Of a DNA stretch of 16,259 bases, positions 2,388-16,146 are shown piece by piece. The translations under genes and the position numbers were made by a program. Origin of the DNA: an uncultured Verrucomicrobiota bacterium (GTDB lineage Bacteria > Verrucomicrobiota > Kiritimatiellia > JAAZAB01); the NCBI GenBank assembly GCA_964515705.1, contig CAZEVX010000046.1:592-16850 (forward strand). Direction: 5' to 3'. Numbering within the stretch: the first letter of the stretch is position 1; each line of letters starts with the position of its first letter. The notes under the pieces are model-generated. The model was not told where the DNA came from, searched no databases, and saw only the letters and a list, made by a program, of their open reading frames with translations.

Positions 2388-3587
2388 CTAGCGGCGCCGC
2401 GTTCTGCCAAAGACCGCCTCGGACAGGCGCGCGGCATCCACGGACACGGTGCGGCTGTCCCGCGCCACGGCGTGCTGTTCGAGGGTTAGGGTCAGCGTGG
2501 CGTTGGTCGTGCGCGACAGCCGGTCGGCCAGGTCCACGATCGAAATCCGGGCCGTTCCGGCGTCGTCCAGGGGCTGCCGCGCCGACCACGAGGCGTCCGG
2601 CAGCGACACGACGACGTCAAACGCGCCGAACGCCGGCGGGTCTTCCTGCGTTTGCGGCGGACCGGTTTCCGACAGCACCGCGCCCGTATCCAGCACGGTC
2701 TCGTAGGATCGCAACGCGAACAGGTCCGCGGTGGCGGCGATCCCGTCATAGGTCAGCGTCAGCGGCGTCTTGGCCACGTCCACGGCAAAGGCGCCCGCCA
2801 TCAGGGCGGAATCGGCGGCAAGCACGACGGTGTCCTTGGCGACATCGCCGGGGATTGCCACCAGGGTTGGGGGCAGGTCCACGGCGTAAATCACGCAGTC
2901 AATGGGAGGGCTCAAGGCGAGCACGACCGGGTCCTTCAGGCAGTTGATCGAGTATGCCATGGCGTCCTTGTTGCCCATGGCGGCGCCGACCAGGCTGAAC
3001 GGCAGCCCGATTTCGGCCAAGAGCCCGGGAATGCTGGCTCCCCATTCGCCGCTGAGAGTCAGGGGAAAGACATAGGATTCCAGTTCGCCATCGGACGTCC
3101 ACAACTTGCCGAAGAGGTGTTTGTCCGAGTCGAGCAGCGCGCGCGTCAGCCGCATGCCCATGTGATCGGTCAGCCAGAAGGCCCCGGTCCGGCTCCAGAT
3201 CGGGAAAAGACCGATGCCCCGGCACGCCTGCATGCCGGTCAGCCGTGGGAAGGTCACGTCGCCCAGGGTCCGCCGCCGCTGCACGCGCTCGACCTTGTAG
3301 TCGGAGACCTCCTGCCAGGTGGTGCAATTCGTGCCGGCGGCGGTCACCAGCAGGGATGGCGGCGCGGTCGCGTAGTCCACGTCGGCCAGCGCCAGGCTGA
3401 TGTTGGTGTGGACCATCTCGTTCGTGCGCTGGCAGGAGACGCGCTCGCCCTTGCGGGGCGGGGAACACGTCGTGCAGCCGGCCGCGAACGCCAGGCAGGC
3501 CATCCCGAAGAGCACGCCGATCCAAGCATGTGACGCGCCGGTATCCCGATCGCCGTTCCTGGCAATGTTCGTGCCGCCGCGATGCAT
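2388..3587 (-). CDS. Hypothetical lipoprotein.
   Basis: 399-aa ORF. The N-terminus has a hydrophobic stretch ending in the lipobox-like LAFAAGC|TTCS. No other family is recognisable by eye. The start is uncertain (the ATG at 3587, or an internal or alternative start). It lies 45 nt upstream of the kinase gene on the same strand. Confidence 0.6.
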   Translation of the reverse strand: MHRGGTNIARNGDRDTGASHAWIGVLFGMACLAFAAGCTTCSPPRKGERVSCQRTNEMVHTNISLALADVDYATAPPSLLVTAAGTNCTTWQEVSDYKVERVQRRRTLGDVTFPRLTGMQACRGIGLFPIWSRTGAFWLTDHMGMRLTRALLDSDKHLFGKLWTSDGELESYVFPLTLSGEWGASIPGLLAEIGLPFSLVGAAMGNKDAMAYSINCLKDPVVLALSPPIDCVIYAVDLPPTLVAIPGDVAKDTVVLAADSALMAGAFAVDVAKTPLTLTYDGIAATADLFALRSYETVLDTGAVLSETGPPQTQEDPPAFGAFDVVVSLPDASWSARQPLDDAGTARISIVDLADRLSRTTNATLTLTLEQHAVARDSRTVSVDAARLSEAVFGRTRRR

Positions 3588-3640
3588 ACACTACCGCCCT
3601 CCAGGCGCAGACAGGAATCCCTCGGCCGCTCCGCGGACCC

Positions 3641-4747
3641 TCACCCGAAGCGCTGTTCGCGGAAGCGCTCGTATTGCTTCATCAGGCCGGGGGTGATCGA
3701 GGCCGGGATGTTGCGCAGGGCGGCCTGCAGGTCCTGCTCGCGCACGACCGGCGCGCTGTCGTCCTTCACGCAGCGCCCGAGCGCGGCGCGCTTGGCGGCG
3801 TTGACGATCCCCACGATGTCGCTGCCGGTATAGCCCTCGAGGCGGTCGGCCCAGGCCTCGAGGCCGATCTCCGGCTCGCGCGGCGCGTCCTTCAGGCTGG
3901 AGGACAGGATGCCCAGGCGCGCGGCGCGGTCGGGCGGCGGGATGAAAATCTTCTCGTCGAAGCGCCCGGTGCGGAAGACGGCCTCGTCAATCTCCCAGGG
4001 CTTGTTGGTGGCGCCGAGCAGCAGCAGCACGTTGGCGCTATCCTCGAACCCGCCGACTTCCGCCAGGAACTGCACCACGATGCGGTTGTCCACCACGGAG
4101 TTGCCGCCGCGGCGCGGCAGCAGGCCGTCGACGTCGTCGAAAAACAGGACCGCCAGCGGGTGTTCGCGGGCGGCTTTCACCAGCAGGCGCAGTTTCTGCT
4201 CCGATTCCCCGTGCCACTTCGAGCGGATTTGCGCGCCGGACGCATAGTAGAAGGGCGCGTCCAGTTCGTGCGCGATGGCCTTGCCGAGGGTGGTCTTGCC
4301 GTTGCCGGGCGGCCCGTAGAGCAGCACGCCGCCGCCGGCCTTGAGGCCCAGCGCCTTGGCCTTCTCGAGCGCTTGCAGCGGATAAATCACCATCTCGCGG
4401 ATGGTCCGCTTGGCGTCTTCCATCCCGGCGATCATCGCGAACGTCTCGGCCGCCGGGGCGTCGCCGGGGGCGGCGGCCGGCTCGCGGGCGGTGCCGGGCG
4501 GCGCTCCGGCGGGGGCGGTGCGCGGCGGCGCGGCCTTCAGGCGCGCGGCGATCTCGAGCCAGCCGTCGGCCTCGTCGGCATAGCGCTGGGCGATGGCGCC
4601 GTCGGTCTGGCTGGCCAGGGCCAGGGCGAACTCGGCGGCCTTGGCGGCGTGGAAGACCGCCTCGCGCGGGCGTCCGCCGCGGATCAGGGTCTCGCAGCGC
4701 GCCTCATGCTCGCGCTTCTTGTCGAGGAGGAAGCTCATGAGATGCAT
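3641..4747 (-). CDS. Vps4/CdvC-like AAA+ ATPase (meiotic clade) with an N-terminal MIT-like domain.
   Basis: 368 aa. The N-terminal ~75 aa (REAVFHAAKAAEFALALASQT...AIAQRYADEADGWLEIAARLK) resembles the MIT three-helix bundle of Vps4. A Pro/Ala-rich linker follows. The AAA cassette has Walker A (GPPGNGKT) and Walker B (VLFFDDVD). The meiotic-clade signatures SKWHGESE and GATNKPWEIDEAVFRTGRFDEKIFIPPPD are present (cf. Vps4 [35 protein letters not shown]). The C-terminus (MKQYERFREQRFG) resembles the Vps4 C-terminal helix (LLKQEQFTRDFG). Confidence 0.85.
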   Translation of the reverse strand: MHLMSFLLDKKREHEARCETLIRGGRPREAVFHAAKAAEFALALASQTDGAIAQRYADEADGWLEIAARLKAAPPRTAPAGAPPGTAREPAAAPGDAPAAETFAMIAGMEDAKRTIREMVIYPLQALEKAKALGLKAGGGVLLYGPPGNGKTTLGKAIAHELDAPFYYASGAQIRSKWHGESEQKLRLLVKAAREHPLAVLFFDDVDGLLPRRGGNSVVDNRIVVQFLAEVGGFEDSANVLLLLGATNKPWEIDEAVFRTGRFDEKIFIPPPDRAARLGILSSSLKDAPREPEIGLEAWADRLEGYTGSDIVGIVNAAKRAALGRCVKDDSAPVVREQDLQAALRNIPASITPGLMKQYERFREQRFG

Positions 4748-4750
4748 TCA

Positions 4751-4802
4751 GCGGAGGAGAGGAAAGGCGCTCGCGGAGGCGCGGAGGCGCGGAGGCGCGG
4801 AG
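4751..4802 (+). repeat. Copy of the short GC-rich interspersed repeat (GCGCTCGCGGAGGCGCGGAG with a tandem GCGGAGGC x3).
   Basis: It matches copies at 7444-7477, 14317-14372 and 15971-16146. It sits just upstream of the Vps4-like start codon. Confidence 0.7.
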
Positions 4803-5052: not shown

Positions 5053-5088
5053 CGCGAGTTCATTCCTCTTCTCCGCATCTCCGCGAGA
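5037..5088 (-). repeat. Inverted copy of the interspersed repeat (revcomp GATCTCGCGGAGATGCGGAGAAGAGGAATGAACTCGCGGTGACGCGGAGAGGGG).
   Basis: The reverse complement shares GCGGAGAAGAGGAATGAACTCGCGG with the copy at 16106-16130. It abuts the stop codon of the ESCRT-III gene (5089-5091). Confidence 0.7.
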
Positions 5089-5718
5089 TCACTTCCCATC
5101 CAGCAACTTCTTCACCCGCTCCTGGCCGTCCGCCAGCCGGCTGTCGAGCGCGCCGCCGGCCCGGGCGGCGGCGGCGCCGCCGACGTCGGCGGCGACTTCC
5201 TGCTCGAGTTGCCGGCTGAGTTCTTCCATGCTCGGGATATGATCCTCGAGGGCGGCGGCGGCGCCTTCGGTCTCCTTGCCGTAGAGTTTTTCCCAGAAGC
5301 GGTCGGCGTCTACCTGCTCGCCGAGCAGGTCCTGGGCCTCCTCGAAGACGTCGGCCACCTGTTCGGGGTCGATCTTGACGACCTGGTTGATGCGCTGGAG
5401 CGCGTCGGAAAACTGCTGGTCGGACTCCGCCGCCTGGAGCTTGGTGTAATACTGCTCGAAGACCCAGCGTTTCTGTTCGAGCTTGGTCATCAGCACCTGC
5501 GCGGCGCGGTAACTGATCAGGGCGCGCTGGGCGGCGGCTTTCTGGCCGGCCGTCATCGCCGCGCGCGCCTGGTCCCATTGCTTCTTGGAGTCGCGGTCCA
5601 TCTGCTTGACGCGGTCCTTGACGGTCTCGATGGCGTTCTCGGCCTGGCGGAAGGCGTGCCGCCGTTCCTTGCGCGCGTCGCGCGCGCGCTCTTTCTTGGA
5701 CTTGAAGAGGTGGGTCAT
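5089..5718 (-). CDS. ESCRT-III / Snf7 (CHMP)-family protein.
   Basis: 209 aa. It has a basic N-terminus (MTHLFKSKKERARDARKERR, cf. Snf7/CHMP MGLFGKxxK...) and a helical hairpin rich in K/Q/A. The acidic alpha4-5 signature VVKIDPEQVADVFEEAQDLLGEQVD resembles Snf7 DIDKVDETMDEIREQVELGDEISDA. The acidic C-terminal tail ends ..LDSRLADGQERVKKLLDGK. A strong SD (AAAGGAG) lies 6 nt upstream of the ATG. Confidence 0.8.
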   Translation of the reverse strand: MTHLFKSKKERARDARKERRHAFRQAENAIETVKDRVKQMDRDSKKQWDQARAAMTAGQKAAAQRALISYRAAQVLMTKLEQKRWVFEQYYTKLQAAESDQQFSDALQRINQVVKIDPEQVADVFEEAQDLLGEQVDADRFWEKLYGKETEGAAAALEDHIPSMEELSRQLEQEVAADVGGAAAARAGGALDSRLADGQERVKKLLDGK

Positions 5719-5759: not shown

Positions 5760-6701
5760 CTATCCGTCGGTCTTGTCCGGGGATTCGGGCCGCGGCGCCG
5801 GGTCGCTTGCCGGCGGCGTCTCCTTGGCCGCGGGCGTGTCGAACCCGGCCAACTCCTGTTCGAGGGCGCTGGCGGCGGCGGGCGTCTCGAAGTCCGCCAG
5901 TTGCTCCCGGAACGCCTCGCGGTCGGACTCGCGCTCGCGCCGGCGCCCGGCGCGCTCCAGGTCGCGCGCGGCGTCGGCGCGGTCTTCGGCCTCCTGGACC
6001 TTGTCCTCGACGTCGTCAATCAAGTCATCGATCGCCGCGTCCTTGACGCCGGCCATGCCGTAGGCCATGACCTCGAGCATGCGCCCCTTGACCTGGGCGA
6101 GGGTGCGCTCGTTTTCGAGCAGGACCGTCAGTTCGCGTTCCGTGGCCTTGTAGGCGGCCAGCAGCGTCTGGAGTTCGGCCTCCAGCAGGCGCTTGCGGGC
6201 GGGCGGCGCGGTCTCGTAGACCTTCTTCTTGGCGGCGATCTCCTGGAAGCGGGTGTCGAGGGTCGTTGACAAGGCGGTGCGCCGCGCCGCGTTGGCGGCG
6301 GCGGCGCTCTCGATCGTCTGCAGCATGGCCTGCGGGGATTTGTCCTGGTGCAGTTTGCGGAACAGGGTCAGCGCGCCGGCGCCCAGTTTCCGGGTCAGGC
6401 GCAGGGTTTCCTGCATGGCGGCCTTGAGCTTGGCGGGGTCCGGCTTGGGCGCCGCCGGCCCGGCGGGCGGAAGCGCGTCTGTCGGAGCGTTCACGGGGTC
6501 CTCCTTGTCCGGCGGCGACGCCGGCGCCGCCGCCGGCGCCGGGCGGGCGTCCGGTTCCCGGTATCCGTGGGCCGGGCAGAGCCGGTTGCCGCGATGCCAA
6601 TGTAGCGCGCAGAACGGCTGGGCGCAATCCGGATGTTGGCAGCGGCCGGCGACGGCATACCGGCTGGGCAAAGGCTTGCCGCAGACACCGCAGGTGTCCA
6701 T
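5760..6701 (-). CDS. ESCRT-III / Snf7-family protein fused to an N-terminal Cys/His zinc finger (AN1/MYND/HIT-like spacing).
   Basis: 313 aa. The N-terminal C4-x2-C7-x13-C21-x4-C26-x4-C31-x2-H34-x-H36-x5-C42-x2-H45 is a Pro/Ala-rich linker. A Snf7-like core follows (..KKKVYETAPPARKRLLEAELQTLLAAYKATERELTVLLENERTLAQVKGRMLEVMAYGMAGVKDAAIDDLIDDVEDKVQEAEDRADA). Compare CHMP MDIDKIDDLMQDIADQQELAEEIS. The C-terminal tail has two LA[DG]F[ED]TPAA motifs and a Pro-rich end. The start is 6 nt after the OMP stop. Confidence 0.75.
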   Translation of the reverse strand: MDTCGVCGKPLPSRYAVAGRCQHPDCAQPFCALHWHRGNRLCPAHGYREPDARPAPAAAPASPPDKEDPVNAPTDALPPAGPAAPKPDPAKLKAAMQETLRLTRKLGAGALTLFRKLHQDKSPQAMLQTIESAAAANAARRTALSTTLDTRFQEIAAKKKVYETAPPARKRLLEAELQTLLAAYKATERELTVLLENERTLAQVKGRMLEVMAYGMAGVKDAAIDDLIDDVEDKVQEAEDRADAARDLERAGRRRERESDREAFREQLADFETPAAASALEQELAGFDTPAAKETPPASDPAPRPESPDKTDG

Positions 6702-6707
6702 GGCGCG

Positions 6708-7394
6708 CTAGAACTCCTGGCGCACGCCGAGTTCGGCGAACGGCAGTTGCAGGCGTTCGGCGAAGTCGCTGTTCTTCAAACGCTGGTCGCGGTAGCCGGC
6801 GGCCAGGTAGAGGTTGGCGTTCTTGGCGATGGCGTCGAGCGTGACGGCGTAGGCCAGCCCGCCCTCGTAGGACCACAGCCAGGCCCAGCCGTCCTTGTCG
6901 GGCACGTCGGTGTTCATGCGCATCGGCAGCACGCGGGTGTTGGCGAACAGGAAGAACCCGCTGCGGCCGAGCGGCACGTTGACGTTGACGCCCAGCCCGG
7001 CGCCGAGCCCGGTGGTGGCGAGGCTCTTGCCCCAGGCCGGGTCGTTCTTGAGGTCGTAGTCGTACCACATCCCGCGGACATCGGCGAAGATCCCGAACAT
7101 CGAGGCGATCTCGTACATCACGATGGCGTCGGCGTCCACGCGGTCCATGTCGCCCAGCGAGCCGTAGAGGCCCTCGACGCCGATCGCCCAGCGTTCGCTG
7201 TTGCCGGGCCGGAACAGCAGGCTCGGCCCGAACATGGCGCCGCTCTCGGAATAATCGCCGTCGCCGTAGAGCGCGGTGTCCTTCCAGTGCGCGCCGCCGA
7301 GGCGCAGTCCGTAGGAGGCCGTTTCGGAATAGGCGCCCTGCGCCAGCAGCGCCAGGGCAAGTCCCGCGGTCAGCCATCGAAGTCTCGGGTTCAT
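6708..7394 (-). CDS. Outer-membrane beta-barrel protein (OMP_b-brl-like).
   Basis: The start is taken at the internal ATG at 7394 (MNPRLRWLTAGLALALLAQGAYS signal peptide, with GAAAGGA 3 nt upstream). The track ORF extends to 7487. It shows an alternating hydrophobic/aromatic beta-strand pattern (WAIGVEGLYGS.., YEIASMFGIFADVRGMWYDYD, LGAGLGVNVNVPL, GFFLFANTRVL, WAWLWSYEGGLAYAVTL, NLYLAAGYR) and a C-terminal ..RQEF (terminal Phe). Confidence 0.75.
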   Translation of the reverse strand: MNPRLRWLTAGLALALLAQGAYSETASYGLRLGGAHWKDTALYGDGDYSESGAMFGPSLLFRPGNSERWAIGVEGLYGSLGDMDRVDADAIVMYEIASMFGIFADVRGMWYDYDLKNDPAWGKSLATTGLGAGLGVNVNVPLGRSGFFLFANTRVLPMRMNTDVPDKDGWAWLWSYEGGLAYAVTLDAIAKNANLYLAAGYRDQRLKNSDFAERLQLPFAELGVRQEF

Positions 7395-7443
7395 GGGAGT
7401 CCTTTCAGTAGGTTGTTGCGTGGCGGGGCGCGAAGCGACGATG

Positions 7444-7477
7444 GCTCGCGGAGACGCGGAGAATGCGGAGAGGAATC
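7444..7477 (+). repeat. Copy of the interspersed repeat (GCTCGCGGAGACGCGGAGAATGCGGAGAGGAATCC).
   Basis: The core CTCGCGGAGACGCGGAG is identical to the copy at 14343-14359. It is intergenic, between genes 7600-8298 and 6708-7394. Confidence 0.7.
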
Positions 7478-7599
7478 CTGGGCGCAAAGCGCCGTGCCGG
7501 AAAAAATCTCGCGTAGGCGCGGAGGACGCTGAACGATAGCCATACGTGCTCCTGCATGTTCCGCTACCGCCAACCTGCGGTCTGCCGCCGTCCGGCCGC

Positions 7600-8298
7600 C
7601 TAGCGCGGGCGGGTGCAGCGGCGCACCAGGCCGCGCAGCAGCAGCAGGCTGACCACCAGGGCGAAGAGCGCCAGGAGGACCAGCGCGATTTCGACCTTGT
7701 AATAGATCACCAGGTCCCGCAGCGGGGGATACGATTCGCCTTCGGCATTCGCGCCGCCGATGCGCTCGCGGGTGTCCACGCGCGCCAGGGAGAGCGGAAT
7801 GCTGACCCAGGCCCTCAGCCAGTCCTCGTCCACGTGGCGCACCCGGCCGACCAGCAGGGCGTCGGCGCCCTTGGCGCTCTCGGGGATGACGTAGGTTCCG
7901 CGCACGGCCTTCCACTTGATGGCGGCCTTGTCCATGATGTCCCCGAAGCCAGAGTTCGGGTCCGTCCGCGCCCACTCGTCCTCGATCTCTTTCCAGTCCG
8001 CGCCCCGCAGGATCACCACGTGGAAGCGCTTTTCCGCCGAGAGCCGGGCCGCCAGCAGTTCCGTGAAGTTGCGCGGGTCGTTGGCCAGCGGCAGGATGCC
8101 GATGTTGGCGACGCCCTCGAGGTGCGGCGCGTTCAGCGCCTCGCGAATCCATTGCTCGATGGCCTGCCCCGCCGCCCGGTCAATGGTCCGCTCGCGGATC
8201 ACGCCGGTTGGCGCCTGGAAGGCCGCCGGCGCGGTTCCGGCCAGCAGCATCCAGCCCGCCAGCATGGTTCCCAACATCCCGGTTGTCTGTCTGCGCAT
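7600..8298 (-). CDS. Hypothetical secreted/periplasmic protein with a C-terminal transmembrane anchor.
   Basis: 232 aa. It has an N-terminal signal peptide (MLGTMLAGWMLLAGTAPAAFQ), a GILPLANDP..ELLAARL segment reminiscent of CsgG/LpoB/TolB-N-type folds (weak), and a C-terminal hydrophobic helix (VEIALVLLALFALVVSLLLL) followed by a basic tail. Confidence 0.55.
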   Translation of the reverse strand: MRRQTTGMLGTMLAGWMLLAGTAPAAFQAPTGVIRERTIDRAAGQAIEQWIREALNAPHLEGVANIGILPLANDPRNFTELLAARLSAEKRFHVVILRGADWKEIEDEWARTDPNSGFGDIMDKAAIKWKAVRGTYVIPESAKGADALLVGRVRHVDEDWLRAWVSIPLSLARVDTRERIGGANAEGESYPPLRDLVIYYKVEIALVLLALFALVVSLLLLRGLVRRCTRPR

Positions 8299-8325: not shown

Positions 8326-9243
8326 TCACTTGTAGTGCGTCAGAATCCGCTGCAGGGCGTCCATCGCGCCCGGTTCGTAGGTCGAAAGCCGCAGCCGGAT
8401 GCCCGGCAGGTCCGCCAGCAGTTGGCCGATGTCCGACTCGTGTTTCAGCCCGTAGATGATCTCGTAGGACGCCGTTTCGCTCTCGCGGTCCCACTGCAGC
8501 AGGTCCACGTAATTGATGTAGGCCCGGCGTTCCAGTTCGTTCTGGATCGCCACGGCGGCGTCCATCGTCGGGACGCTGTTGACGATCAGGCCCGCCCAGA
8601 GCAACTGGTCGGTCTTGGCGAACAGGTCGTCGAGCAGCCCCGCGCTGACCTTGGCGCCGGCGGCGCGCAGGGCCAGCAGCCCGGCGCGCGCGCTGTCCTG
8701 CTCGCGGGGGCCGTCGGCCTCGAGGCGGGCCGTCGCCAGCAGCGTGCCGTCCCGCCCGCGCACCGCCTGGGCGTCGGCCGTGGCGCGGTAGCGGGCGAAC
8801 CGGCCGGTGGTGTTGACGAAGGCGCTGCGGGCCTCGACCCGCACCACGAGGTGCGCCTTGACGGCCCGGCTGAGCGCCGCCAGGTCGGTGGCGGCGGGCA
8901 CGGCGTCGCTGAACAGCCGGAAATCGCGCCGCACCAGCTCGCGCTCCAGGAGCGGCTTGATTTCCGAGGCCGCGGCCGTCGCGCCGTCCGGGCCGGCGAC
9001 CGTTTCCTGCCCGATGACCACCGTGCGCAGTTTGCCGAACTTGACCAGTTGCCCGCTGCGCGCTTCCAGCGCCCGGAGCGTGTTGGTCGGCGCGGATGGC
9101 GGGCCGGGGGGTGGCGGGAGCGGCACGGTGACCCGCGGCTCGGGCGGCGGGGGCGGCGGGATCGTGGAACAGCCGGCGATCAGCAATACGGCGGCGGCCT
9201 GGCCGACGGCCGCCAGGACGCGCAGGCTTGAGCGACGGGTCAT
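8326..9243 (-). CDS. Hypothetical lipoprotein with a Pro-rich linker.
   Basis: The start is taken at the internal ATG at 9243 (MTRRSSLRVLAAVGQAAAVLLIAGC|S lipobox, with AGGAGA 6 nt upstream). The track ORF extends to 9408 through a Pro/Arg-rich N-terminus that is probably not translated. The mature N-terminus has PPPPPPEP..PLPPPPGPP. Confidence 0.65.
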   Translation of the reverse strand: MTRRSSLRVLAAVGQAAAVLLIAGCSTIPPPPPPEPRVTVPLPPPPGPPSAPTNTLRALEARSGQLVKFGKLRTVVIGQETVAGPDGATAAASEIKPLLERELVRRDFRLFSDAVPAATDLAALSRAVKAHLVVRVEARSAFVNTTGRFARYRATADAQAVRGRDGTLLATARLEADGPREQDSARAGLLALRAAGAKVSAGLLDDLFAKTDQLLWAGLIVNSVPTMDAAVAIQNELERRAYINYVDLLQWDRESETASYEIIYGLKHESDIGQLLADLPGIRLRLSTYEPGAMDALQRILTHYK

Positions 9244-9364: not shown

Positions 9365-11014
9365 TCAGACATCCGGGTGGCGGAACGGTTCGACGCGCAC
9401 CTCGCCATGGGGCGCGCGCAGGGTTTGGCCGGGCGTCAGCCAGTCGCATCGGCCGCCGAGATGCAGCAGGAAGGCGTCCTGCTGCCGGCAGACGCAGGCC
9501 GACCCCAGGCGCGCGTCCAGCAGGCCGAGGGCGGCGTGTTTCCAGAGCGCCACGATCGCCTCGTGCGGCCGGCCGCGCTGGCGCAGGATCAGGCAGGCCG
9601 GACTGTCGGGCGCCGCGCGCCCGCGGCAGGCGGGCTGGCACGGGTCCGCCTGGCCGCACGCCTGCAGGTCGAGGTCGAACGCCACGCAGGCCGAGTCGTC
9701 CGGGTCCGCGCTGCCGAGCGTCAGCAGATGGCGCCGGCCAGCGACGATCGGCGCGCCGTCCGCGTCGCCGACCCGGCGCCCGTCCAGGAAGGTCCCGTGG
9801 GTGCTGGGTTTCGCCTGCCGGGCCGGGGCCGGCAGGCGCCGATCGAGGAGCAGGCAGCGATTCCCGTCCAGCCGCAGGCAGCAATGGAACTGGCTGATCC
9901 AGAGCACGTCCTCCTCGCGGCGGCTCAGGGGGCGGGCCAGGATGTCGGAGTCCTTGTGGCGGCCCAGTTGCAGGAGCGGCGCGGCCAGCAGGCGCGCGGT
10001 CAGCGTTCCGCACCGCAGCGTCAGGCCGCGCGCCTGCGCCGCCGGGGGCGGGCGCTGGACGGGGTGCGGCAGGAACCCGCCGCCCTCGCGCGGCGGCCTG
10101 TAATGGTGGCATTTCTTCAGCGGCAGGGTTTTCCAGCGCGGCGGGATGTCGAACTCCGCCAACTCGCGCACCGGATCGCTGGCGCGCGACTTGAGGGCCT
10201 CGAGCCCGTTGATGGCCTGGTGCACCTGGGCGTCGCCGGCATGGCCCTGCTTGATGTCATTCTTGAGCTCGATGTTCAGCGTGTGGATCACGTGCCCGAT
10301 CGTTTCCTGGGCCTTGAAGACATGATGCTTGACCATCGCCCGGAACCAGTGGTCGCCGCCGTCCCGCGTGAAGCCGACGAGCACGTCGTACGAGATTTTC
10401 CCGCCCAGCCCCGACGGGGGGGCATAGTTGAAATAGATCGGGATGGGTTGGCCGCGGGAAATTTCCAGTTCGGGCTCGTCACTGTTCAGCAGCGCCTGGT
10501 CCAGACGGATTTCGACCCGCAGGTTGGAAAGCCCTTCGCGCAACGGCCGCAGGCGGAACTCGAACGGGAACATCATGTTTTGCACAAACACCCGGCTGCA
10601 GTTGAACTGGATGTCCCAGTCGTCACACTGGCTGCGCTCCATGCCATCGGTCCACACGGCGCTGTCGGCGTCCGGCTCGCGGTCGAGCGCCGGCCGGTCG
10701 GCGCTCGCCGCGCCGCGCTCCGCCAGCGCCTCGGCCCGCGCGGCGGCCGCTTCCAAGATTCCCGCCCGCCGGCCGGCGGGCGCGCCGCCCGCGCCGGCCT
10801 CCGCCGCGGGCGGCTCCGGGGTCGGGTCCGCGCCCGCCGCCGCCGCGATGCCGCTGGCCGGCGCCGGGTCGGCGGCCGCGGCGCGCGTCGGGGCGCTGTC
10901 GCGGGAGTCGGCGCCGGGCGCCGCCGCCAAATCCTGGCCGCAGATCGGGCAGAAGGCGGCGGCCTCTTCCGGCTCGAGCGGTTGGCGGCAGTGCGGGCAG
11001 GCGCGGGCGGTCAT
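9365..11014 (-). CDS. Zinc-ribbon + FHA-domain protein.
   Basis: 549 aa. The N-terminal CPHCRQPL..FCPICGQDL is a zinc ribbon, followed by an Ala/Pro-rich low-complexity region and a ~230-aa central region of unknown family. The C-terminal FHA domain is ..LQLGRHKDSDILARPLSRREEDVLWISQFHCCLRLDGNRCLLLD..STHGTFLDGRRV..IVAGRRHLLTLG (GR..DI, S..H, S.HGT.LDG and GxxxLxLG motifs). The start is 4 nt after the stop of the upstream SPFH gene. Confidence 0.75.
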   Translation of the reverse strand: MTARACPHCRQPLEPEEAAAFCPICGQDLAAAPGADSRDSAPTRAAAADPAPASGIAAAAGADPTPEPPAAEAGAGGAPAGRRAGILEAAAARAEALAERGAASADRPALDREPDADSAVWTDGMERSQCDDWDIQFNCSRVFVQNMMFPFEFRLRPLREGLSNLRVEIRLDQALLNSDEPELEISRGQPIPIYFNYAPPSGLGGKISYDVLVGFTRDGGDHWFRAMVKHHVFKAQETIGHVIHTLNIELKNDIKQGHAGDAQVHQAINGLEALKSRASDPVRELAEFDIPPRWKTLPLKKCHHYRPPREGGGFLPHPVQRPPPAAQARGLTLRCGTLTARLLAAPLLQLGRHKDSDILARPLSRREEDVLWISQFHCCLRLDGNRCLLLDRRLPAPARQAKPSTHGTFLDGRRVGDADGAPIVAGRRHLLTLGSADPDDSACVAFDLDLQACGQADPCQPACRGRAAPDSPACLILRQRGRPHEAIVALWKHAALGLLDARLGSACVCRQQDAFLLHLGGRCDWLTPGQTLRAPHGEVRVEPFRHPDV

Positions 11015-11018
11015 GGCC

Positions 11019-12680
11019 TCATTTCACCACGTGGGTCGTCGTGCCGGGATGCCTGGCCGCCTCGGCGGTCGTCTCGAGCGCCGACTTCAAGATGCGCTCG
11101 AGGCGCTCGGCGGATTCGTCCAGCAGGTTCTTGCGCTCGGCCCAGTCCTTGTCGCGGTCCTCGCGCTTGGCGCGCTCCATCTCCGCCAGCACCCGCACCA
11201 CGTCGGGGTTGCGCCCGGCCTGCAGCGCCAGGATCACGTCGGCCGATTTCCCCTGCGCCTGCAACTGCTCGTTCAGTTTCAGCAGCGCCTCGCGCCGCGC
11301 CGGGTCGTCGGTCATCGCCACCAGCGTTTGCAGGCTCAGCTTGTCCTGGACGGCCGCCCGCTCGGCGTAATCCTGGCGCTCGAAAGCCTTTTTCTTCGCG
11401 CGCACGTCGATCCATTTCAAGGCCTCGTCGACCTCGCGCGCGGTGGTCATCTTCGCCAACTCGTCCTGCAGCCGGGCGTCCTTCGTCTGCCGGTCGCGGG
11501 TGTAGTCGTCCCACTGGATCTTGACCTTGATCTCGTGGGCGGCCTTCTCGATCTCGCAGGCCATGCGGTAGGCGGCCTCTTTCTGGTCGAGTTCGTGGCG
11601 CTGCACCATTTTCAGCAGCGCCAGTTCGCGGTCGCGCTTCTCGGCCGAAATCGCGCGCTCCTGCGCCAACTGCTTGACGTAGTCCTCGAGGTCCTGCTCG
11701 CTCTTGAACAGGTGCATCTTCTCGGACGCCACCAGCTCCCGCAGGCGCTGGCCGAACTCGATCTCGCGCCGGCGCAACTCGAGCGCCCCGGCCTGCGCGC
11801 GCAACGCGTCAAATTCCTTGCCCGAAAACTCGGCCGCCGCCACGCGCACCAGCTCGAGGCCGTAGCGCTCGAGCGCCGTTTTCAGCGTGGTCTCGAGCGC
11901 GTCCTCGACCTGCAGCCGGCGCTGCGGGTCCTTGACCAGGTCGTCGGCCGTCGAGGTCGCGCAGAGGGTCGTCACGGCATAGCGCAGTTCCGCCCGCAAA
12001 ATCTCGGCGATTTCGTCCGCCATCAGCCAGTCGCGGCTCTTGAACAGGTTGGCCACGAAGGCCGGCGCGCCCTTCTCGGAGAAATGAAAGACGGCCTCGA
12101 TTTGCAGGTCCAGCGGCAGCTCCTCGTGCGAGCGCAGGCCCTCGAACCGCAGCGGCAGCGTCACGTCGCCGTTGTCCACCAGGATCGCCGTGCGCGGCGG
12201 CGGGTCGCCCCACCAGTTGATCTTGCGCGCCAGGCTCTCGAGGGTGTGCCGCCCGGGCCCGAGCACGTCCTTGTACGCCCCGCCGTCCAGCAGGATCGCC
12301 GCCGTGCCGGTTTGGATCTCAAGTCCGTTCTTCACCAGCGCCAGGATGTCGCCCACCTCGAGGCGCCGCGCGAACTGCTCGAACCCCTTCTGCCATTGTC
12401 CACCGGCCACCTCGTTGCGGCTCTCGGGATGCAGCGCCTGCTTGCAGTTCCAGCAGAACTCCGATTCGTTGCCGACTTTCTTCCCGCAGCCGGGGCATTG
12501 CCACCAGCCGCCCGGCGCCGGCGCCCCGCACTTGGCGCAGAACAGGGCCGCCTTCTTGACCGCATGCCCGCAGCGCGGCCAGCCGGGATCCTGCAGGGCG
12601 TCCTGCAGGGCTTTGCCGGCCAGCGCCTTGCCGGTGGTCTTGTCCACCAGCGCCCGGCAGGTATCCGAAAAGAGTCCCAT
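11019..12680 (-). CDS. Double zinc-ribbon + SPFH (band-7/flotillin-like) domain protein with a long C-terminal coiled coil.
   Basis: 553 aa. The N-terminus carries two zinc ribbons: PRCGHAVKKAALFCAKCGAP, then WQCPGCGKKVGNESEFCWNCKQAL. An SPFH-like core follows (GTAAILLDGGAYKDVLGPGRHTLE..TAILVDNGDVTLPLRFEGLRSHEELPLDLQIEAVFHF..). The C-terminal ~250 aa is Glu/Ala/Lys/Arg-rich, flotillin-style coiled coil. AGGAGA lies 5 nt upstream of the ATG. Confidence 0.7.
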   Translation of the reverse strand: MGLFSDTCRALVDKTTGKALAGKALQDALQDPGWPRCGHAVKKAALFCAKCGAPAPGGWWQCPGCGKKVGNESEFCWNCKQALHPESRNEVAGGQWQKGFEQFARRLEVGDILALVKNGLEIQTGTAAILLDGGAYKDVLGPGRHTLESLARKINWWGDPPPRTAILVDNGDVTLPLRFEGLRSHEELPLDLQIEAVFHFSEKGAPAFVANLFKSRDWLMADEIAEILRAELRYAVTTLCATSTADDLVKDPQRRLQVEDALETTLKTALERYGLELVRVAAAEFSGKEFDALRAQAGALELRRREIEFGQRLRELVASEKMHLFKSEQDLEDYVKQLAQERAISAEKRDRELALLKMVQRHELDQKEAAYRMACEIEKAAHEIKVKIQWDDYTRDRQTKDARLQDELAKMTTAREVDEALKWIDVRAKKKAFERQDYAERAAVQDKLSLQTLVAMTDDPARREALLKLNEQLQAQGKSADVILALQAGRNPDVVRVLAEMERAKREDRDKDWAERKNLLDESAERLERILKSALETTAEAARHPGTTTHVVK

Positions 12681-12699
12681 GGCGGTCTCCTGAATAGGC

Positions 12700-12770
12700 G
12701 GGTTGTGGTTTGCGGTTGGCGATTAGCCGTTGGCAAGTTGCGGGTTGCGGTTGGTCATTCGTTGTGGTTC
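12700..12770 (-). promoter_or_regulatory. GTTG-rich degenerate direct repeats in the leader/upstream region of the SPFH gene.
   Basis: TTGCGGTTGG appears at 12710-12719 and 12745-12754. GTTGTGGTT appears at 12703-12711 and 12761-12769 (on the coding strand: CCAACCGCAA / AACCACAAC). It lies in the 230-bp gap between the HTH gene stop (12912) and the SPFH start (12680). Confidence 0.35.
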
Positions 12771-12911
12771 TTCGCTGGTTTCAGTGGCCAACGGGAAAGG
12801 CTCGAGATATTCGCGTATTCCAGCGGCCGCCCAGGCTGTGCGGCCCTACCCACATGGCGCCATGATTGTCCCAAACCCCGTTCGCCAACCACCAACCACC
12901 ATTCGCCGTCC

Positions 12912-13259
12912 CTACCCGCTTTTCCGCCCGCCGGGCTCCCCGCCGTGCTCCGAACAGACCCGTACCCGCTTGCGCTCCCAGCAGTCCAGGCAGATCGGCG
13001 CCCCGCATTCCTTGCACGACTGGTTCAGCGACAACTTGCTCTGGTAGGTCTTCGCGCAGGCCGAGCATACCCCGCCGCCGCGGTCAATCTTACTCGTCTC
13101 CAGATAGGCATCAAGGTCTTTCCGCGATACCCGGTAAACTTTTCCGACCCGCGAGGCCGGCAACTCGCCCGCCCGGACGAGCTTGTAAATCAACTGGTAA
13201 TGCACGCCCAGCAGCGCGGCGACGTCGTCCAACGAAAGAAACTCTTTGTCCGGGCTCAT
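12912..13259 (-). CDS. Excisionase/MerR-type helix-turn-helix (HTH_17-like) DNA-binding protein with a C-terminal zinc ribbon.
   Basis: 115 aa. LSLDDVAALLGVHYQLIYKLVRAGELPASRVGKVYRVSRKDLDAYL matches the excisionase-family HTH pattern (cf. LLTVKEAAELLGVSRSTIYRLIRRGELPAVKIG..W.I.REDLEEYL). The C-terminal is CSACAK..x11..CKECGAPICLDCW..VCSEHG. GAAAGGGG lies upstream of the ATG. Confidence 0.7.
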   Translation of the reverse strand: MSPDKEFLSLDDVAALLGVHYQLIYKLVRAGELPASRVGKVYRVSRKDLDAYLETSKIDRGGGVCSACAKTYQSKLSLNQSCKECGAPICLDCWERKRVRVCSEHGGEPGGRKSG

Positions 13260-13318
13260 GCTGGCCCCTTTCGCCCCCGCGGATGACCGATCTTGACCAC
13301 TACTTGCCTTTCGGTTCC

Positions 13319-13347
13319 CTTTTATGCCTGGTTATCTGCATTGTCAA
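13319..13347 (-). promoter_or_regulatory. Putative sigma70-type promoter for the HTH gene (and possibly the downstream minus-strand array).
   Basis: On the minus strand: TTGACA (revcomp of 13342-13347), a 17-nt spacer, then TAAAAG (revcomp of 13319-13324). It lies in the only AT-rich patch of the window (13320-13375), ~55 nt upstream of the ATG at 13259. Confidence 0.4.
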
Positions 13348-13377
13348 ACATTTATTTTCAATATTTTTTATTGGGGA

Positions 13378-13406
13378 TTGACGGGCTGCCTGCTTGGGGA
13401 TAGGCT
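13378..13406 (+). promoter_or_regulatory. Possible weak sigma70-like promoter for the divergent plus-strand genes.
   Basis: TTGACG (13378-13383), a 17-nt spacer, then TAGGCT (13401-13406). It is ~45 nt upstream of the ATG at 13450. The -10 element is a poor match. Confidence 0.25.
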
Positions 13407-14317: not shown

Positions 14318-14372
14318 GAGCGCGGAGGAGGCAGCCAGGACGCTCGCGGAGACGCGGAGAGGGTGGAGCGCC
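14317..14372 (+). repeat. Copy of the interspersed repeat (GAGAGCGCGGAGGAGGCAGCCAGGACGCTCGCGGAGACGCGGAGAGGGTGGAGCGCC).
   Basis: The core CTCGCGGAGACGCGGAG is at 14343-14359. It begins at the stop codon of gene 13847-14317 and precedes the kinase gene. Confidence 0.7.
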
Positions 14373-14405: not shown

Positions 14406-15926
14406 ATGCCGGCCCGCGTGGCAGGCGCCTTCCTGATGCATAGCAACCACGGGAATGGCTTTCCCATGCAACACTCCATCAATACCGAGAACACCATCGG
14501 CAACCAGCCGGATGGCATGCCGGAAAGCTATATGCTCGCTCCGGGCCAAACGCTGGGCCATTACCGTGTCGTCCGGCCTCTGGGCAGAGGCGGGATGGGA
14601 GAGGTCTACGAGGTCAACCATCAGGTCTTTGGCAGCCGGATGGCGTTGAAAACGATTCTGCGGGAGTTTGCGGCCTCCGAGCGCTTTCAGAAACGCTTTC
14701 TGGACGAGGCGCGCCTGATGCACCGGTTGCAGAATCGCTATATCGTGCATTGTTCCGATGCCGGGGAGCATGACGGGATCTGGTACTTGGTGATGGATTA
14801 TGTGGAGGGACCTGCCGGCGAGCCCGTGAACTTGATGACGCTGCTGCAGCAGCGGCGCGAAAAGGCGCTGCTGTTCGAGGAGGAAGAAGGGGTGCTGGTT
14901 GGCATGCAACTCTGCGAGGCCTTGGCCTATGCCCACTCGTATCGGGACGAGCAGATCCAATCGGGGATCATTCATCGCGATCTCAAACCGGCCAACGTGC
15001 TGCTCAACCGGGATACGCAGTTGCTGGTCACGGACTTCGGTCTGGCGCGGCTGCTGGGGCCTGGGTTCGAACAGAGCGTGATCTCGAGGTCCATGGCCGC
15101 GGCGGTGTCCATGGGCGCCCAGGCCACGCGGGGTTCCCGTTCCGGCACGGCGGGGTCAGACCAGGTCGGCACGTTCGATTACATGAGCCCGGAGCAGCGC
15201 GAAGGGCGGGAAGCGGACGCGCGCAGCGACGTCTATTCCCTGGGAGCCATGCTGTATGAATTGTTGACGGGGCGCAAGGTGGCGGGAGTGCCGCTGAAAC
15301 CGAGCCGGGCGCGGAAGGGGTTGGATCCGATCTGGGACATCATCATCTACGAGCGTTGCTTGTGTGCCGATCCTGACGGGCGCTACGCCAGCGCCGCGGA
15401 GCTGAAAGCGGATATCTTGAAGGAAGTGCCGTGTGCGGCCGGCGAATGGGCCCCGGCCGGCCTGGGCCCAACCCCTGGTTCGGAGGCAGCGAAGCCGGAA
15501 GCGATTGGCCAACTCGCCCACGATCGCGGGCGGCGGGCAGTCGACATCCAGCCAAGATTGACGCCGGCTTCGCCCGCCGAGAGTCCCGTGCCGCCGACCG
15601 GTGTTGCCGAGCTGGGGTATTGGTATCGGGATGCGTGGAAACACGGCAAAACATTTTCCGGGCGATCCCGGCGCCGGGCCTTTTGGATGTTTACTTTGGT
15701 CGATGTCATTATTTCCTTCGGCGTGGGATTTGCCACGGCAGGGGTTGCCGAAATTCCATATATGATTGTCATGTTTCTCCCCAGGTGGGCGGTTGCGGTG
15801 CGCCGGTTGCATGACACGGGACGTAGCGGCTGGTGGAGTCTGCTCCCGATCCTCAATCTCGTCTACTTGTGCGAGGACAGCCAGCCGGGCGTCAACGCGT
15901 ATGGGCCGAATCCGAAAGGACAATAA
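14406..15926 (+). CDS. Hanks-type Ser/Thr protein kinase fused to a C-terminal DUF805 membrane domain.
   Basis: The kinase has a Gly loop (LGRGGMGEVYEV), catalytic Lys (MALKTIL), HRDLKPANVLL and DFGLARL. It carries a ~50-aa Ser/Thr/Gly-rich activation-loop insertion before GTFDYMSPEQ. The C-terminal YWYRDAWKHGKTFSGRSRRRAFWMFTLVDVIISF..IPYMIVMFLPRWAVAVRRLHDTGRSGWWSLLPILNLVYL..GVNAYGPNP matches DUF805 (E. coli YhaH-like: FSGRARRKEYWMF..LPWWAVQFRRLHDTDRSAWW..NRFGPDP). The start is uncertain among the in-frame ATGs at 14406, 14436 and 14466. The upstream part of the track ORF (13701-14405) is a GC-frame artefact overlapping gene 13847-14317. Confidence 0.8.
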   Translation: MPARVAGAFLMHSNHGNGFPMQHSINTENTIGNQPDGMPESYMLAPGQTLGHYRVVRPLGRGGMGEVYEVNHQVFGSRMALKTILREFAASERFQKRFLDEARLMHRLQNRYIVHCSDAGEHDGIWYLVMDYVEGPAGEPVNLMTLLQQRREKALLFEEEEGVLVGMQLCEALAYAHSYRDEQIQSGIIHRDLKPANVLLNRDTQLLVTDFGLARLLGPGFEQSVISRSMAAAVSMGAQATRGSRSGTAGSDQVGTFDYMSPEQREGREADARSDVYSLGAMLYELLTGRKVAGVPLKPSRARKGLDPIWDIIIYERCLCADPDGRYASAAELKADILKEVPCAAGEWAPAGLGPTPGSEAAKPEAIGQLAHDRGRRAVDIQPRLTPASPAESPVPPTGVAELGYWYRDAWKHGKTFSGRSRRRAFWMFTLVDVIISFGVGFATAGVAEIPYMIVMFLPRWAVAVRRLHDTGRSGWWSLLPILNLVYLCEDSQPGVNAYGPNPKGQ

Positions 15927-15970
15927 CGGGGGCTCGGTCGTCTTCCCGCCGCGGCCACGCCCGCGCCGGG

Positions 15971-16146
15971 GAAGCAGGCGCTCGCGGAGACGCGAAGGAA
16001 GCGGAGAAGAGGACGCTCGCGGAGACGCGGAGAGCGCGGAGCGCCGGTAGGGCGCGGCAGCCCTGCCGCGCCGGAGAGGAAGGCGCTCGCGGAGGCGCGG
16101 AGAGCGCGGAGAAGAGGAATGAACTCGCGGAGAGGCGGAGAGAGGG
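15971..16146 (+). repeat. Array of three degenerate copies of the interspersed repeat plus an embedded GC hairpin.
   Basis: Unit 1 is 15975-16010 (GCGCTCGCGGAGACGCGAAGGAAGCGGAGAAGAGGA). Unit 2 is 16012-16046 (GACGCTCGCGGAGACGCGGAGAGCGCGGAGCGCC). A 9-bp-stem hairpin follows at 16051-16072 (GGCGCGGCAGCCCTGCCGCGCC). Unit 3 is 16075-16146 (GGAAGGCGCTCGCGGAGGCGCGGAGAGCGCGGAGAAGAGGAATGAACTCGCGGAGAGGCGGAGAGAGG). Unit 3 is a contiguous version of the two half-elements that flank the GxxExxY remnant at 4751-5088. Confidence 0.7.

Follow-up and report, generated by a model that had tools for sequence, protein, structure and literature searches.

We analyzed a stretch of 16,259 nucleotides (nt) from an uncultured Verrucomicrobiota bacterium of the class Kiritimatiellia (GenBank assembly GCA_964515705.1, contig CAZEVX010000046.1, positions 592 to 16,850 of the forward strand; hereafter the window), with the focus on two adjacent minus-strand genes that code for an SPFH-domain protein and an FHA-domain protein. 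We found that these two genes are the second and third members of a conserved five-gene unit, in which they are preceded by the gene for an HTH_17 protein and followed by those for a lipoprotein (D) and a membrane protein (E), and to which Hanks kinases and genes for a Snf7-like protein and an AAA ATPase are attached in variable order. The best explanation for this arrangement, to which we would give a probability of about one half, is a phosphorylation-gated module for membrane remodelling or repair. Our analysis shows gene reality, domain identities, fold and conserved linkage; the phospho-relay, membrane recruitment and remodelling are all inferred. The minus-strand genes of the window are denoted A to K in the order in which they would be read, the SPFH and FHA genes being B and C, and a kinase gene on the plus strand is denoted L.

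The SPFH-FHA gene pair and its conserved neighborhood

The window has a GC content of about 70%, and spurious frames crowd its lists of open reading frames (ORFs). The ORFs for the SPFH protein (11019..12680, minus strand; 553 aa) and the FHA protein (9365..11014, minus strand; 549 aa) show GC contents at the third codon position (GC3) of 0.92 and 0.91 and at the second position (GC2) of 0.42 and 0.53, respectively, a pattern shared with the other minus-strand genes of the array. Given that such a GC3 bias is typical of real genes in a window of this composition, both ORFs are real genes. The stop codon of the former and the start codon of the latter are exactly 4 nt apart (TGA-ggcc-ATG), which bears out the spacing given in an earlier inspection of the letters alone (hereafter the sequence-only reading), and co-transcription of the pair is almost certain and translational coupling possible. 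That reading had also placed lipoprotein, outer-membrane protein and ESCRT-III genes downstream of the pair on the same strand; the lipoprotein, outer-membrane protein and Snf7-like genes are indeed found there, as is the AAA gene.

Gene neighborhoods were collected for 3 SPFH homologues and for 36 loci that a scan of species-representative genomes returned with an alignment of 11 SPFH sequences as the query, and were mapped with the window proteins. This yielded 38 loci overall, from Verrucomicrobiota, Kiritimatiellia and Lentisphaerota (L-numbers below denote individual loci); in all locus counts the denominator is the number of loci long enough to show the feature. An HTH_17 gene lies immediately upstream of the SPFH gene in 33 of 37 loci, and a homologue of the FHA protein lies downstream of it in 27 of 32. 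Iterative searches of the locus ORFs recovered D-like genes in about 25 loci and E-like genes in about 28, right after the FHA gene and co-directional with it. This synteny is kept across three lineages of the Planctomycetes-Verrucomicrobia-Chlamydiae (PVC) group at SPFH identities of 33–65%, and it upholds the previously proposed coupling of the focal pair to the genes downstream. All array loci that carry a taxon name belong to PVC bacteria, and the five-gene array is confined to Verrucomicrobiota, Kiritimatiellia and Lentisphaerota.

The attached genes are less constant. At least one Hanks kinase is present in 20 of the 22 long loci and at least one of G (a 313-aa protein), H (the 209-aa Snf7-like protein) and I (the AAA ATPase) in 18, with all three in 10. 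In nearly all cases, G, H and I share the strand of the array, L009 being the exception, and their order and position vary between loci; the Snf7-like gene comes directly after the FHA gene in L020, L025, L028, L030, L036 and L038. The sequence-only reading had picked out the focal pair correctly but had missed the upstream HTH_17 gene, the conservation of D and E, and the kinases with FGE-sulfatase domains and associated diversity-generating retroelements (DGRs) that are described below.

The SPFH protein

The product of B is a soluble protein with an N-terminal zinc-binding region (aa 8-79, nt 12444-12659), an SPFH domain (aa 121-280, nt 11841-12320) and a helical tail (aa 288-543, nt 11052-11819). 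Against Pfam, it matched Band_7 (PF01145) over aa 121-280 with 42.6 bits (cut-off 23.6) and DZR with 29.7 bits (cut-off 27.3). We detected 146 full-length homologues with 33–100% identity; all those carrying names come from Verrucomicrobia, Kiritimatiellia or Lentisphaeria, and nearly all of the 120 listed homologues bear a precomputed PF01145 assignment. Eight cysteines (C8, C37, C48, C51, C62, C65, C76 and C79) are invariant in the family, a number that would suffice to form two zinc sites.

An AlphaFold2 model based on a 26-sequence alignment (mean predicted local distance difference test score, pLDDT, 76.5; 80–90 in the SPFH core) comprises an alpha/beta domain spanning aa ~100-286, followed by helices from residue 288 to 543 that include single ones of 80 and 52 residues. 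When this model was compared with the PDB using Foldseek, the top 50 matches were all SPFH proteins, the first being the flotillin complex 9bq2 (E 8.6e-9, 451 aligned columns, 17–18% identity), followed by erlin, stomatin, prohibitin, HflK/C, QmcA and the major vault protein. The SPFH domain call thus holds at the level of both the Pfam model and the fold. By sequence, the family profile recovered no PDB chain at E<=0.01, and there was no Pfam match at E<=0.1 to the flotillin-specific Flot domain. The label 'flotillin-like', which had been proposed before and which the top Foldseek match supports at the fold level, is as the model stands a statement on fold and architecture and not on subfamily membership. 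The previously claimed coiled coil of 250 aa is matched in the model by the helical tail; of the coiled-coil packing itself, the model offers predicted helices only. With its ~255 residues, the tail resembles those from which SPFH rings or cages are built.

No transmembrane (TM) segment was predicted in the SPFH protein, as the sequence-only reading had stated, the maximum Kyte-Doolittle mean over 19 residues being 1.14. Across 33 orthologues this maximum ranges from 0.8 to 1.64, with no hydrophobic membrane anchor. Lacking such an anchor, the protein would depend on a partner to be recruited to the membrane, in analogy to the cytosolic YdjI/SamI protein of Bacillus subtilis.

One SPFH protein (P0006) was observed in two contexts, namely L001:11703-16938 and L002/L007:7359-12505. 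In L001, the FHA gene is shortened (464 as against 523 aa), and the place of D-E-F-G behind it is taken by transposase-type HTH genes and a GIY-YIG/RAMA gene, a configuration that suggests disruption of the array by an insertion sequence (IS) in one population.

The FHA protein

The product of C is a soluble adaptor-like protein with the architecture zinc ribbon-X-FHA-Y. The zinc ribbon (aa 6-25, nt 10940-10999) is followed by a low-complexity linker rich in Ala and Pro, a middle domain (aa ~130-300, nt 10115-10627) that is conserved and contains a GHAxD motif, the FHA domain (aa 350-419, nt 9758-9967), and a beta-rich C-terminal domain (aa ~455-549) with conserved Cys/Trp residues. Neither the middle nor the C-terminal domain could be assigned to a family, and no TM segment was predicted. 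The N-terminal ribbon gives a weak Pfam signal, and a CxxC...CxxC pattern begins all 26 syntenic orthologues.

The window protein matched Pfam FHA (PF00498) over aa 350-419 with 25.6 bits (cut-off 20.7), the match spanning model positions 3-54 of 67, and each of the 26 orthologues matches the same model, the best with E 9.2e-10. A search with the trimmed 26-sequence profile added 3 further proteins, and the 33 PDB chains that the family profile drew in are without exception FHA domains (Chk2 with E 1e-3, Rad53, GarA, RNF8 and others). The FHA call, like that of the SPFH domain, is therefore sustained. Among the residues of the phosphate-binding set, G351 and H377 are found in 26 of 26 orthologues and S374 in 25, and S404 and G407, which flank the position of the canonical Asn, are invariant. 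Judging from these alignments and from the substitutions considered below, the FHA domain is a divergent one.

The ESCRT-III-type proteins and the AAA ATPase

The 209-aa product of H (5089..5718, minus strand) has a conserved N-terminal 'LFxKSKKE' motif and a conserved C-terminal helix. On its own it scores 17.7 bits against Pfam Snf7, which is under the cut-off of 27.3, and a profile of 11 sequences gave marginal Snf7 matches only. A search for the wider family recovered 162 cluster representatives at E<=1e-3, nearly all of them 205–230 aa long. A 98-member profile from this family matched yeast Snf7 with E 9.2e-13 and in register (positions 19-145 against 17-148), followed by the Heimdall ESCRT-IIIB (1e-9) and then by CHMP3, CHMP1B, CHMP2A and CdvB. 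Individually, 61 of the 98 members match Pfam Snf7, the best with E 8.2e-9. These profile comparisons indicate that H is a genuine Snf7-family ESCRT-III protein, an assignment that applies at the family level.

The family alignment of the 313-aa product of G (5760..6701, minus strand) delineates a two-zinc N-terminal domain, a linker and a helical core of ~170 aa, with a conserved C-terminal 'ELAxFD' motif; homologues are found in 20 loci. As regards an assignment to ESCRT-III, the profile search of the PDB was negative and the hhalign comparison weak. The latter gave a probability of 1.4% against the H-family orthologues and, in register, of 22% (E 9e-4) against the 98-member H profile. G is possibly a divergent ESCRT-III protein.

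The product of I (3641..4747, minus strand; 368 aa) is a single-cassette classical AAA+ ATPase with a helical N-terminal domain of ~75 aa. It matches Pfam AAA with 119 bits and also AAA_lid_3, and its aromatic pore loop RSKWxGESEQ is invariant. Among the NCBIfam models, it scored 194.7 bits with CDC48, 169.0 with CdvC and 162.4 with PAN, all far under the respective cut-offs. It is colinear with positions 101-367 of the 370 in the CdvC model, and its length and architecture are those of a CdvC-like protein. In the PDB, it matches VCP/Cdc48 best, and two-domain Cdc48 chains fill the top 60, so Vps4 is not separable in this way. In the alignment, three helix-like segments can be made out by eye in the N-terminal domain (aa 1-75). 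Sequence searches of Pfam and the PDB gave no support for its identification as an MIT domain. The ATPase may work like Vps4, and membership in the Vps4 family would be a further claim. Hence, of the previously proposed 'ESCRT locus', the Snf7-family identity of H stands at the family level, while the AAA protein is not demonstrably a Vps4 and G is only a possible ESCRT-III protein.

I adjoins or lies near Snf7-like genes in the PVC loci and also in the distant L042 and L044. In L042 (1987-5461), from a metagenome-assembled genome (MAG) of Planctomycetia, two tandem H-family paralogues (2886-3524 and 3546-4172) occur with an AAA gene and are flanked by further ORFs of ~210-230 aa, of which 1987-2613 is unmatched by the H profile. 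In L044 (3384-15254) and L045, Snf7-like, AAA and HTH_17 genes are accompanied by fusions of Peptidase_C14 (caspase-like) and FGE-sulfatase domains that replace the kinases, and the L044 lineage also carries DUF4384 proteins.

A Snf7-like protein plus an AAA ATPase thus constitute a wider core that extends beyond the SPFH/FHA loci and includes Planctomycetia. Given that such pairs persist in distant loci without SPFH or FHA genes, the SPFH-FHA-kinase part is a lineage-specific accessory module on a wider PVC core of Snf7-like and AAA genes.

The kinases, FGE-sulfatase domains and DGRs

The window codes for two Hanks kinases, as had been reported. K (1..2342, minus strand), a cluster-specific kinase whose gene runs off the window edge, matches Pkinase with 170 bits and shows a zinc ribbon, the kinase domain, a double zinc ribbon and a long helical region. 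Its orthologues in L006, L019, L035 and L041 are 41–46% identical, and the full-length one in L041 (1204 aa) has no TM segment and ends in an FGE-sulfatase domain. L (14460..15926, plus strand) matches Pkinase with 132 bits and carries a C-terminal DUF805 membrane domain (67 bits) with two TM segments. The catalytic motifs are intact in both (HRDLKPANIL/VDFG in K and HRDLKPANVL/TDFG in L).

The FGE-sulfatase module is a domain of the C-type-lectin fold. Neighboring kinases with a terminal FGE-sulfatase domain were found in about 18 loci, and in four of the loci (L001, L014, L016 and L039) a DGR reverse transcriptase (RT) is encoded beside such kinases; the window itself shows neither a DGR nor an FGE-sulfatase domain. 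In L001, the DGR (bAvd plus RT) lies beside the SPFH/FHA array, and the two copies of a 137-nt repeat (4289-4425 and 5894-6030) are found at the 3' end of the FGE-sulfatase region of the kinase gene and just after the RT gene. In this template repeat/variable repeat (TR/VR) pair, 22 of the 29 mismatches fall at template adenines, which make up 24% of the template, and this pattern identifies the FGE-sulfatase kinase as a genuine DGR target. No TM segment was predicted in this kinase. The topology of these sensors is mixed, some FGE-sulfatase kinases having no TM segment and others having one; those without would be cytoplasmic.

Other genes of the window

A (12912..13259, minus strand) is the first gene of the array and its 115-aa product a putative regulator of the cluster. 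It matches HTH_17 with 58 bits and has a C-terminal Cys/His domain with eight ligands for two zincs, of which C65, C68, C82, C85, C90, C93 and C102 are invariant and H105 is present in at least 90% of the orthologues. This tail (nt 12912-13100, minus strand) is homologous to the N-terminus of G (6560-6701, minus strand; BLASTP E 4e-5), and cross-matches between the zinc domains of A and G were also obtained with tblastn in L012 and L014. A and G therefore share an interaction-type module, with a possible coupling of regulator and structural protein whose logic is reminiscent of PspF-PspA. The SPFH protein, the FHA protein and kinase K, in turn, have in common ribbons of the Zn_Ribbon_1/DZR type.

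D (8326..9243, minus strand; 305 aa from the ATG at 9243) is a lipoprotein with the lipobox LIAGC and an AGGAG 7 nt upstream of its ATG; it has no Pfam match and is a component of the envelope. E (7600..8298, minus strand; 232 aa) is, from the TM scan, a membrane protein with an N-terminal signal, a periplasmic domain, a C-terminal TM segment (aa 202-220) and a short basic cytoplasmic tail, and is a candidate membrane anchor or envelope sensor. Its counterpart in L003 shows a weak LpoB match, and an E-like ORF is also present at the distant Snf7/AAA locus L044. F (6708..7397, minus strand) codes for a putative outer-membrane beta-barrel protein (weak OMP_b-brl match, E 0.004), with orthologues in four loci only, those of the closest relatives. 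J (2388..3587, minus strand; 399 aa), a putative lipoprotein with the lipobox AAGC, has no matches in the related loci and is a putative lineage-specific passenger or envelope component.

Two small plus-strand ORFs, P176 (13324-13854; 176 aa; GC3 0.77) and P156 (13847-14317; 156 aa; GC3 0.92), the latter with Cys pairs resembling a zinc ribbon, diverge from the array. In L008 (14360-15165) both occur on the strand of the cluster, right after the AAA gene and ahead of a kinase gene; they probably belong to the extended system.

Intergenic regions and transcription

The gaps between successive minus-strand genes are 231 (A-B), 4 (B-C), 121 (C-D), 27 (D-E), ~200 (E-F), 6 (F-G), 41 (G-H), 341 (H-I), 53 (I-J) and 45 nt (J-K). 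In related loci, 3–20 nt separate the Snf7-like and AAA genes, as against 341 here, and ~13–95 nt the HTH_17 and SPFH genes, as against the 231 of the spacer at 12681-12911 (minus strand). The larger gaps of the cluster are attributable to insertions, namely a gene remnant and copies of a GC-rich repeat. The former is a 64-aa ORF in the H-I gap (4810-5004, minus strand) that corresponds to the C-terminal third of PD-(D/E)XK_3 (PF13366; E 6.5e-11). Its GC3 is 0.58 as against ~0.9 in its neighbors, and it is a truncated gene remnant, probably of foreign origin. The repeat (core GCTCGCGGAGRCGCGGAGA) is dispersed over 4761-4799, 5037-5076, 7425-7525, 14334-14372 and 15961-16145, occurring in intergenic positions only. 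It includes an inverted pair of 40 nt with 93% complementarity (5037-5076 with 16106-16145) and three to four near-tandem copies after the DUF805 kinase gene, and looks REP- or MITE-like (that is, like a repetitive extragenic palindrome or a miniature inverted-repeat transposable element).

Within the HTH_17-SPFH spacer, there is a long-range inverted repeat, GGTGGTTGGTGGTTGGCG ... CGCCAACCGCAAACCACAACC. This spacer was rejected as a structured leader, its predicted fold being no stabler than that of shuffled sequences (z = -0.77). No Rfam family was found in the window. There are no terminator-like hairpins between the minus-strand genes, and the window as a whole has 8 against 8.3 expected. 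A scan of the window for sigma-70 consensus promoters found none, this consensus saying little for a PVC genome of 70% GC. By eye, an AT-rich segment at 13300-13400 (minus strand) displays TTGACA followed 16 nt later by ATAAAA, although it fails the criteria of the scanner; this site would be the most plausible start of a cluster transcript. Co-transcription of genes beyond the SPFH-FHA pair is plausible from this layout.

A possible membrane-remodelling module and its alternatives

In the phosphorylation-gated module that we favor, a ligand-bound sensor kinase would phosphorylate a threonine on itself or on another protein of the cluster, and the FHA adaptor would dock on this phosphothreonine. 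The SPFH assembly would then be positioned or nucleated at the inner membrane, anchored via E or other partners, and this platform would recruit or gate the Snf7-like polymer. Finally, the AAA ATPase would remodel or recycle this polymer, leading to local sealing, repair or vesiculation of the membrane. A fuller version of this proposal is that a Snf7-type ESCRT-III/AAA machine is phospho-gated through the FHA protein and an SPFH cage, takes its inputs from ligand-binding, DGR-hypermutable FGE-sulfatase kinases, and is the bacterial counterpart, by ancestry or transfer, of the archaeal ESCRT systems with FHA and SPFH partners, with the sensing of an adaptive type and serving membrane defence or repair; we regard this more elaborate claim as doubtful.

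Several observations weigh against the proposed module. In the FHA domain, position 352 is Arg in 19 of 26 orthologues and Lys in 7, and is hence basic throughout, and the canonical Asn (position 406) is present in just 2 of 26 and absent in 24. An AlphaFold2 model of aa 126-549 of the FHA protein, from a 4-sequence alignment, had a pLDDT of 43.6 and was unusable, and the loci for which Pfam annotations were listed show no phosphatase gene. G, H and I are all missing within 10 kb in 4 of the 22 long loci, among them L006, the closest relative, and internal promoters could be present in the gaps of 231, 121, ~200 and 341 nt. G has no significant match in profile searches of Pfam and the PDB. 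The core of I scores higher to Cdc48-D2 than to CdvC, and an MIT domain was found in I neither by Pfam (0 of 15 orthologues) nor by the PDB profile search. Moreover, all instances of the array come from MAGs or metagenomes. The input from kinases to the FHA protein that the sequence-only reading had envisaged finds support in the kinases as near-constant neighbors (20/22), while the loss of the Asn in 24/26 orthologues and the Lys in place of Arg in 7/26 tell against it.

The main rival explanation is that the cluster is a conflict (anti-phage or anti-invader) system, in which hypervariable FGE-sulfatase sensors, attached to kinases or in other lineages to caspase-like peptidases, would detect the molecules of invaders and the SPFH, FHA, ESCRT-III and AAA proteins would act as a membrane-directed effector or damage-control arm. 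Its mechanism overlaps with that given above, and it is the biological role that differs. The association of DGR reverse transcriptases with FGE-sulfatase kinases in four loci and the adenine-specific TR/VR pair of L001 (22/29 mismatches), with the VR in the FGE-sulfatase region of the kinase, are in line with such a role, and the absence of TM segments from both the L001 kinase and the full-length K orthologue would make these sensors cytoplasmic. Further, the Peptidase_C14-FGE-sulfatase fusions of L044/L045 match the syntax of a partner domain N-terminal to the FGE-sulfatase domain (FGS) described for conflict systems (PMC7159879), the composition of the cluster is variable and its distribution patchy, an IS/transposase disrupts the L001 array, and the HTH_17 protein resembles mad1 of MADS. 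However, the PADLOC v2 models gave no match for the SPFH, FHA and Snf7-like proteins or for G, D and E; F and J were also unmatched, and the only matches among the window proteins were of a generic nature, to an HTH (mad1) and to AAA proteins (IetA, TRIP13). The flanks of L003 and L004 hold housekeeping genes (FeoAB, glycoside hydrolase) rather than defence islands, the window shows no DGR or FGE-sulfatase domain of its own, and the study of conflict systems reports no link to ESCRT or Snf7 (PMC7159879). ESCRT-III and SPFH proteins are, moreover, classically proteins of repair and scaffolding. On balance, we hold the conflict role to be possible, and tentative at that.

A second alternative concerns the FHA domain alone, which could be a phospho-independent structural or oligomerization module, with the kinases acting elsewhere and no relay from kinase to FHA protein. 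It would account for the replacement of the Asn, which binds the peptide backbone, in all but 2 of 26 orthologues and of the Arg by Lys in 7, for a Pfam match limited in the window protein to model positions 3-54 of 67, and for a best PDB profile E-value of only ~1e-3. Nevertheless, the Gly and His are kept in 26 of 26 orthologues, the Ser in 25, and the Arg position is basic in 26; kinases occur in 20 of 22 long loci, and the archaeal FHA-ESCRT loci carry kinases too. We consider this alternative unlikely.

Least probable, in our estimate, is that the five genes of HTH_17-SPFH-FHA-D-E work on their own in envelope stress or scaffolding, with the Snf7-like and AAA genes nearby as other membrane-related genes in a loose grouping and not as parts of one machine. 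In favor of this view, the array is far more constant than its link to G, H and I (all three in 10/22 long loci, none in 4/22 including L006), the order and position of these genes vary, Snf7-like plus AAA pairs of Planctomycetia lack SPFH and FHA genes, and a 341-nt gap with a pseudogene splits H from I, as do ~200 nt E from F. Against it, one or more of these three genes are present in 18/22 long loci, where they share the strand of the array in every case but L009 and in many cases come right after the FHA gene, regulator A shares a specific two-zinc domain with G, an E-like protein is found at the distant Snf7/AAA locus L044, and the same partnerships recur in archaeal ESCRT loci.

Relationship to known systems

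The closest bacterial parallel to the favored module is the pspA-ydjGHI (samGHI) operon of B. subtilis, which likewise combines a cytosolic SPFH protein without TM segments, a protein of the ESCRT-III superfamily and membrane partners. There, the SPFH protein YdjI is needed to link PspA to the membrane (PMC8581546; bioRxiv 10.64898/2026.02.06.704340), and a logic of transcription regulator plus membrane stress is plausible in both cases. However, the PVC polymer protein is of the Snf7 type and not of the PspA type and has an AAA+ ATPase gene next to it, the PVC SPFH protein has its own double zinc module and a far longer helical tail than YdjI, and the PVC cluster adds an FHA adaptor and Hanks kinases and ranges over PVC bacteria instead of Firmicutes.

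Among archaea, neighborhoods of Vps4 and ESCRT-III genes contain either FHA proteins and kinases ('Halo_FHA') or SPFH, coiled-coil and zinc-ribbon proteins, and the authors of that survey also note the PspA-YdjI link of B. subtilis (Makarova et al. 2024, PMC10936438). The Halo_FHA loci resemble the PVC array in combining an FHA protein (arCOG13166) and Ser/Thr kinases with ESCRT-III and an AAA ATPase; both Ser/Thr kinases and phosphatases are present in them, and phosphorylation has been proposed as a key input (PMC10936438). Compared by architecture only, they differ in being archaeal and in having the FHA domain fused to a CdvA-like domain, whereas in the PVC protein it lies between the zinc ribbon and middle domain on one side and the C-terminal domain on the other; further, no phosphatase was seen in the PVC loci, and their ATPase is only CdvC-like. 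The Meth_adaptin loci have SPFH, coiled-coil and zinc-ribbon proteins beside ESCRT-III/Vps4 (PMC10936438); likened here by the description of their architecture, they differ in their adaptin-appendage/GOLD proteins and in lacking an FHA/kinase pair. The parallel with eukaryotic regulation of membrane microdomains and ESCRT recruitment, which the sequence-only reading had drawn, is less apt than those with the archaeal ESCRT neighborhoods (PMC10936438) and with PspA-YdjI (PMC8581546).

For the individual components, other comparisons suggest themselves. Flotillin-1/2 are the best structural match of the SPFH protein (9bq2), over the SPFH domain and the long helices, and both are without TM segments; flotillins attach by acylation or a hairpin, while the PVC protein has an N-terminal zinc module and no Pfam Flot domain. 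In PknB with GarA/FhaA, Hanks kinases are likewise encoded together with an FHA reader, and GarA is among the PDB profile matches of the PVC family. Those FHA proteins, however, have the full canonical motifs and regulate metabolism or cell-wall synthesis, whereas the PVC domain lacks the Asn and has membrane-remodelling proteins as partners. The DGR-FGS conflict systems share with the PVC loci a C-terminal FGE-sulfatase domain on a signalling or effector domain, an adjacent DGR and an adenine-specific TR/VR pair (PMC7159879), but they are centered on vWA-MoxR, STAND or GTPase proteins and show no link to ESCRT-III, SPFH proteins or an FHA adaptor (PMC7159879).

With respect to bacteria in general, a 2025 review holds that a Vps4-like ATPase appears to be absent (PMC7619361), and a statement in the archaeal survey has it that, PspA/Vipp1 aside, no ESCRT components can be identified (PMC10936438). 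A survey of the phage shock protein (PSP) system reports that Vps4-like ATPases have been transferred to some bacteria and that Snf7/PspA proteins are occasionally associated with AAA+ proteins, with no mention of a cluster with SPFH, FHA or kinase genes (PMC11237479). A literature search combining ESCRT or Snf7 with PVC taxa returned nothing relevant. Within the literature searched, the cluster thus appears to be undescribed as a unit. The two domain calls themselves are not new, as public annotation already labels orthologues 'SPFH domain-containing' and 'FHA domain-containing', and the interest lies more in the membership of the cluster than in these two calls.

Implications

The PVC cluster represents a conserved bacterial setting in which the genes for a flotillin-like SPFH protein and an FHA adaptor are linked to those for sensor kinases, a Snf7-family protein and the AAA ATPase dedicated to it, a linkage so far described only in archaea. 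If the favored interpretation is true, the partnership of ESCRT-III and SPFH proteins, which has long been suspected, together with its control by phosphorylation, would become testable with a few soluble bacterial proteins, and DGR-diversified sensing would be tied to a membrane-remodelling output. It would also bear on the question of whether ESCRT partnerships of this kind have an ancient origin or go back to an exchange between archaea and PVC bacteria.

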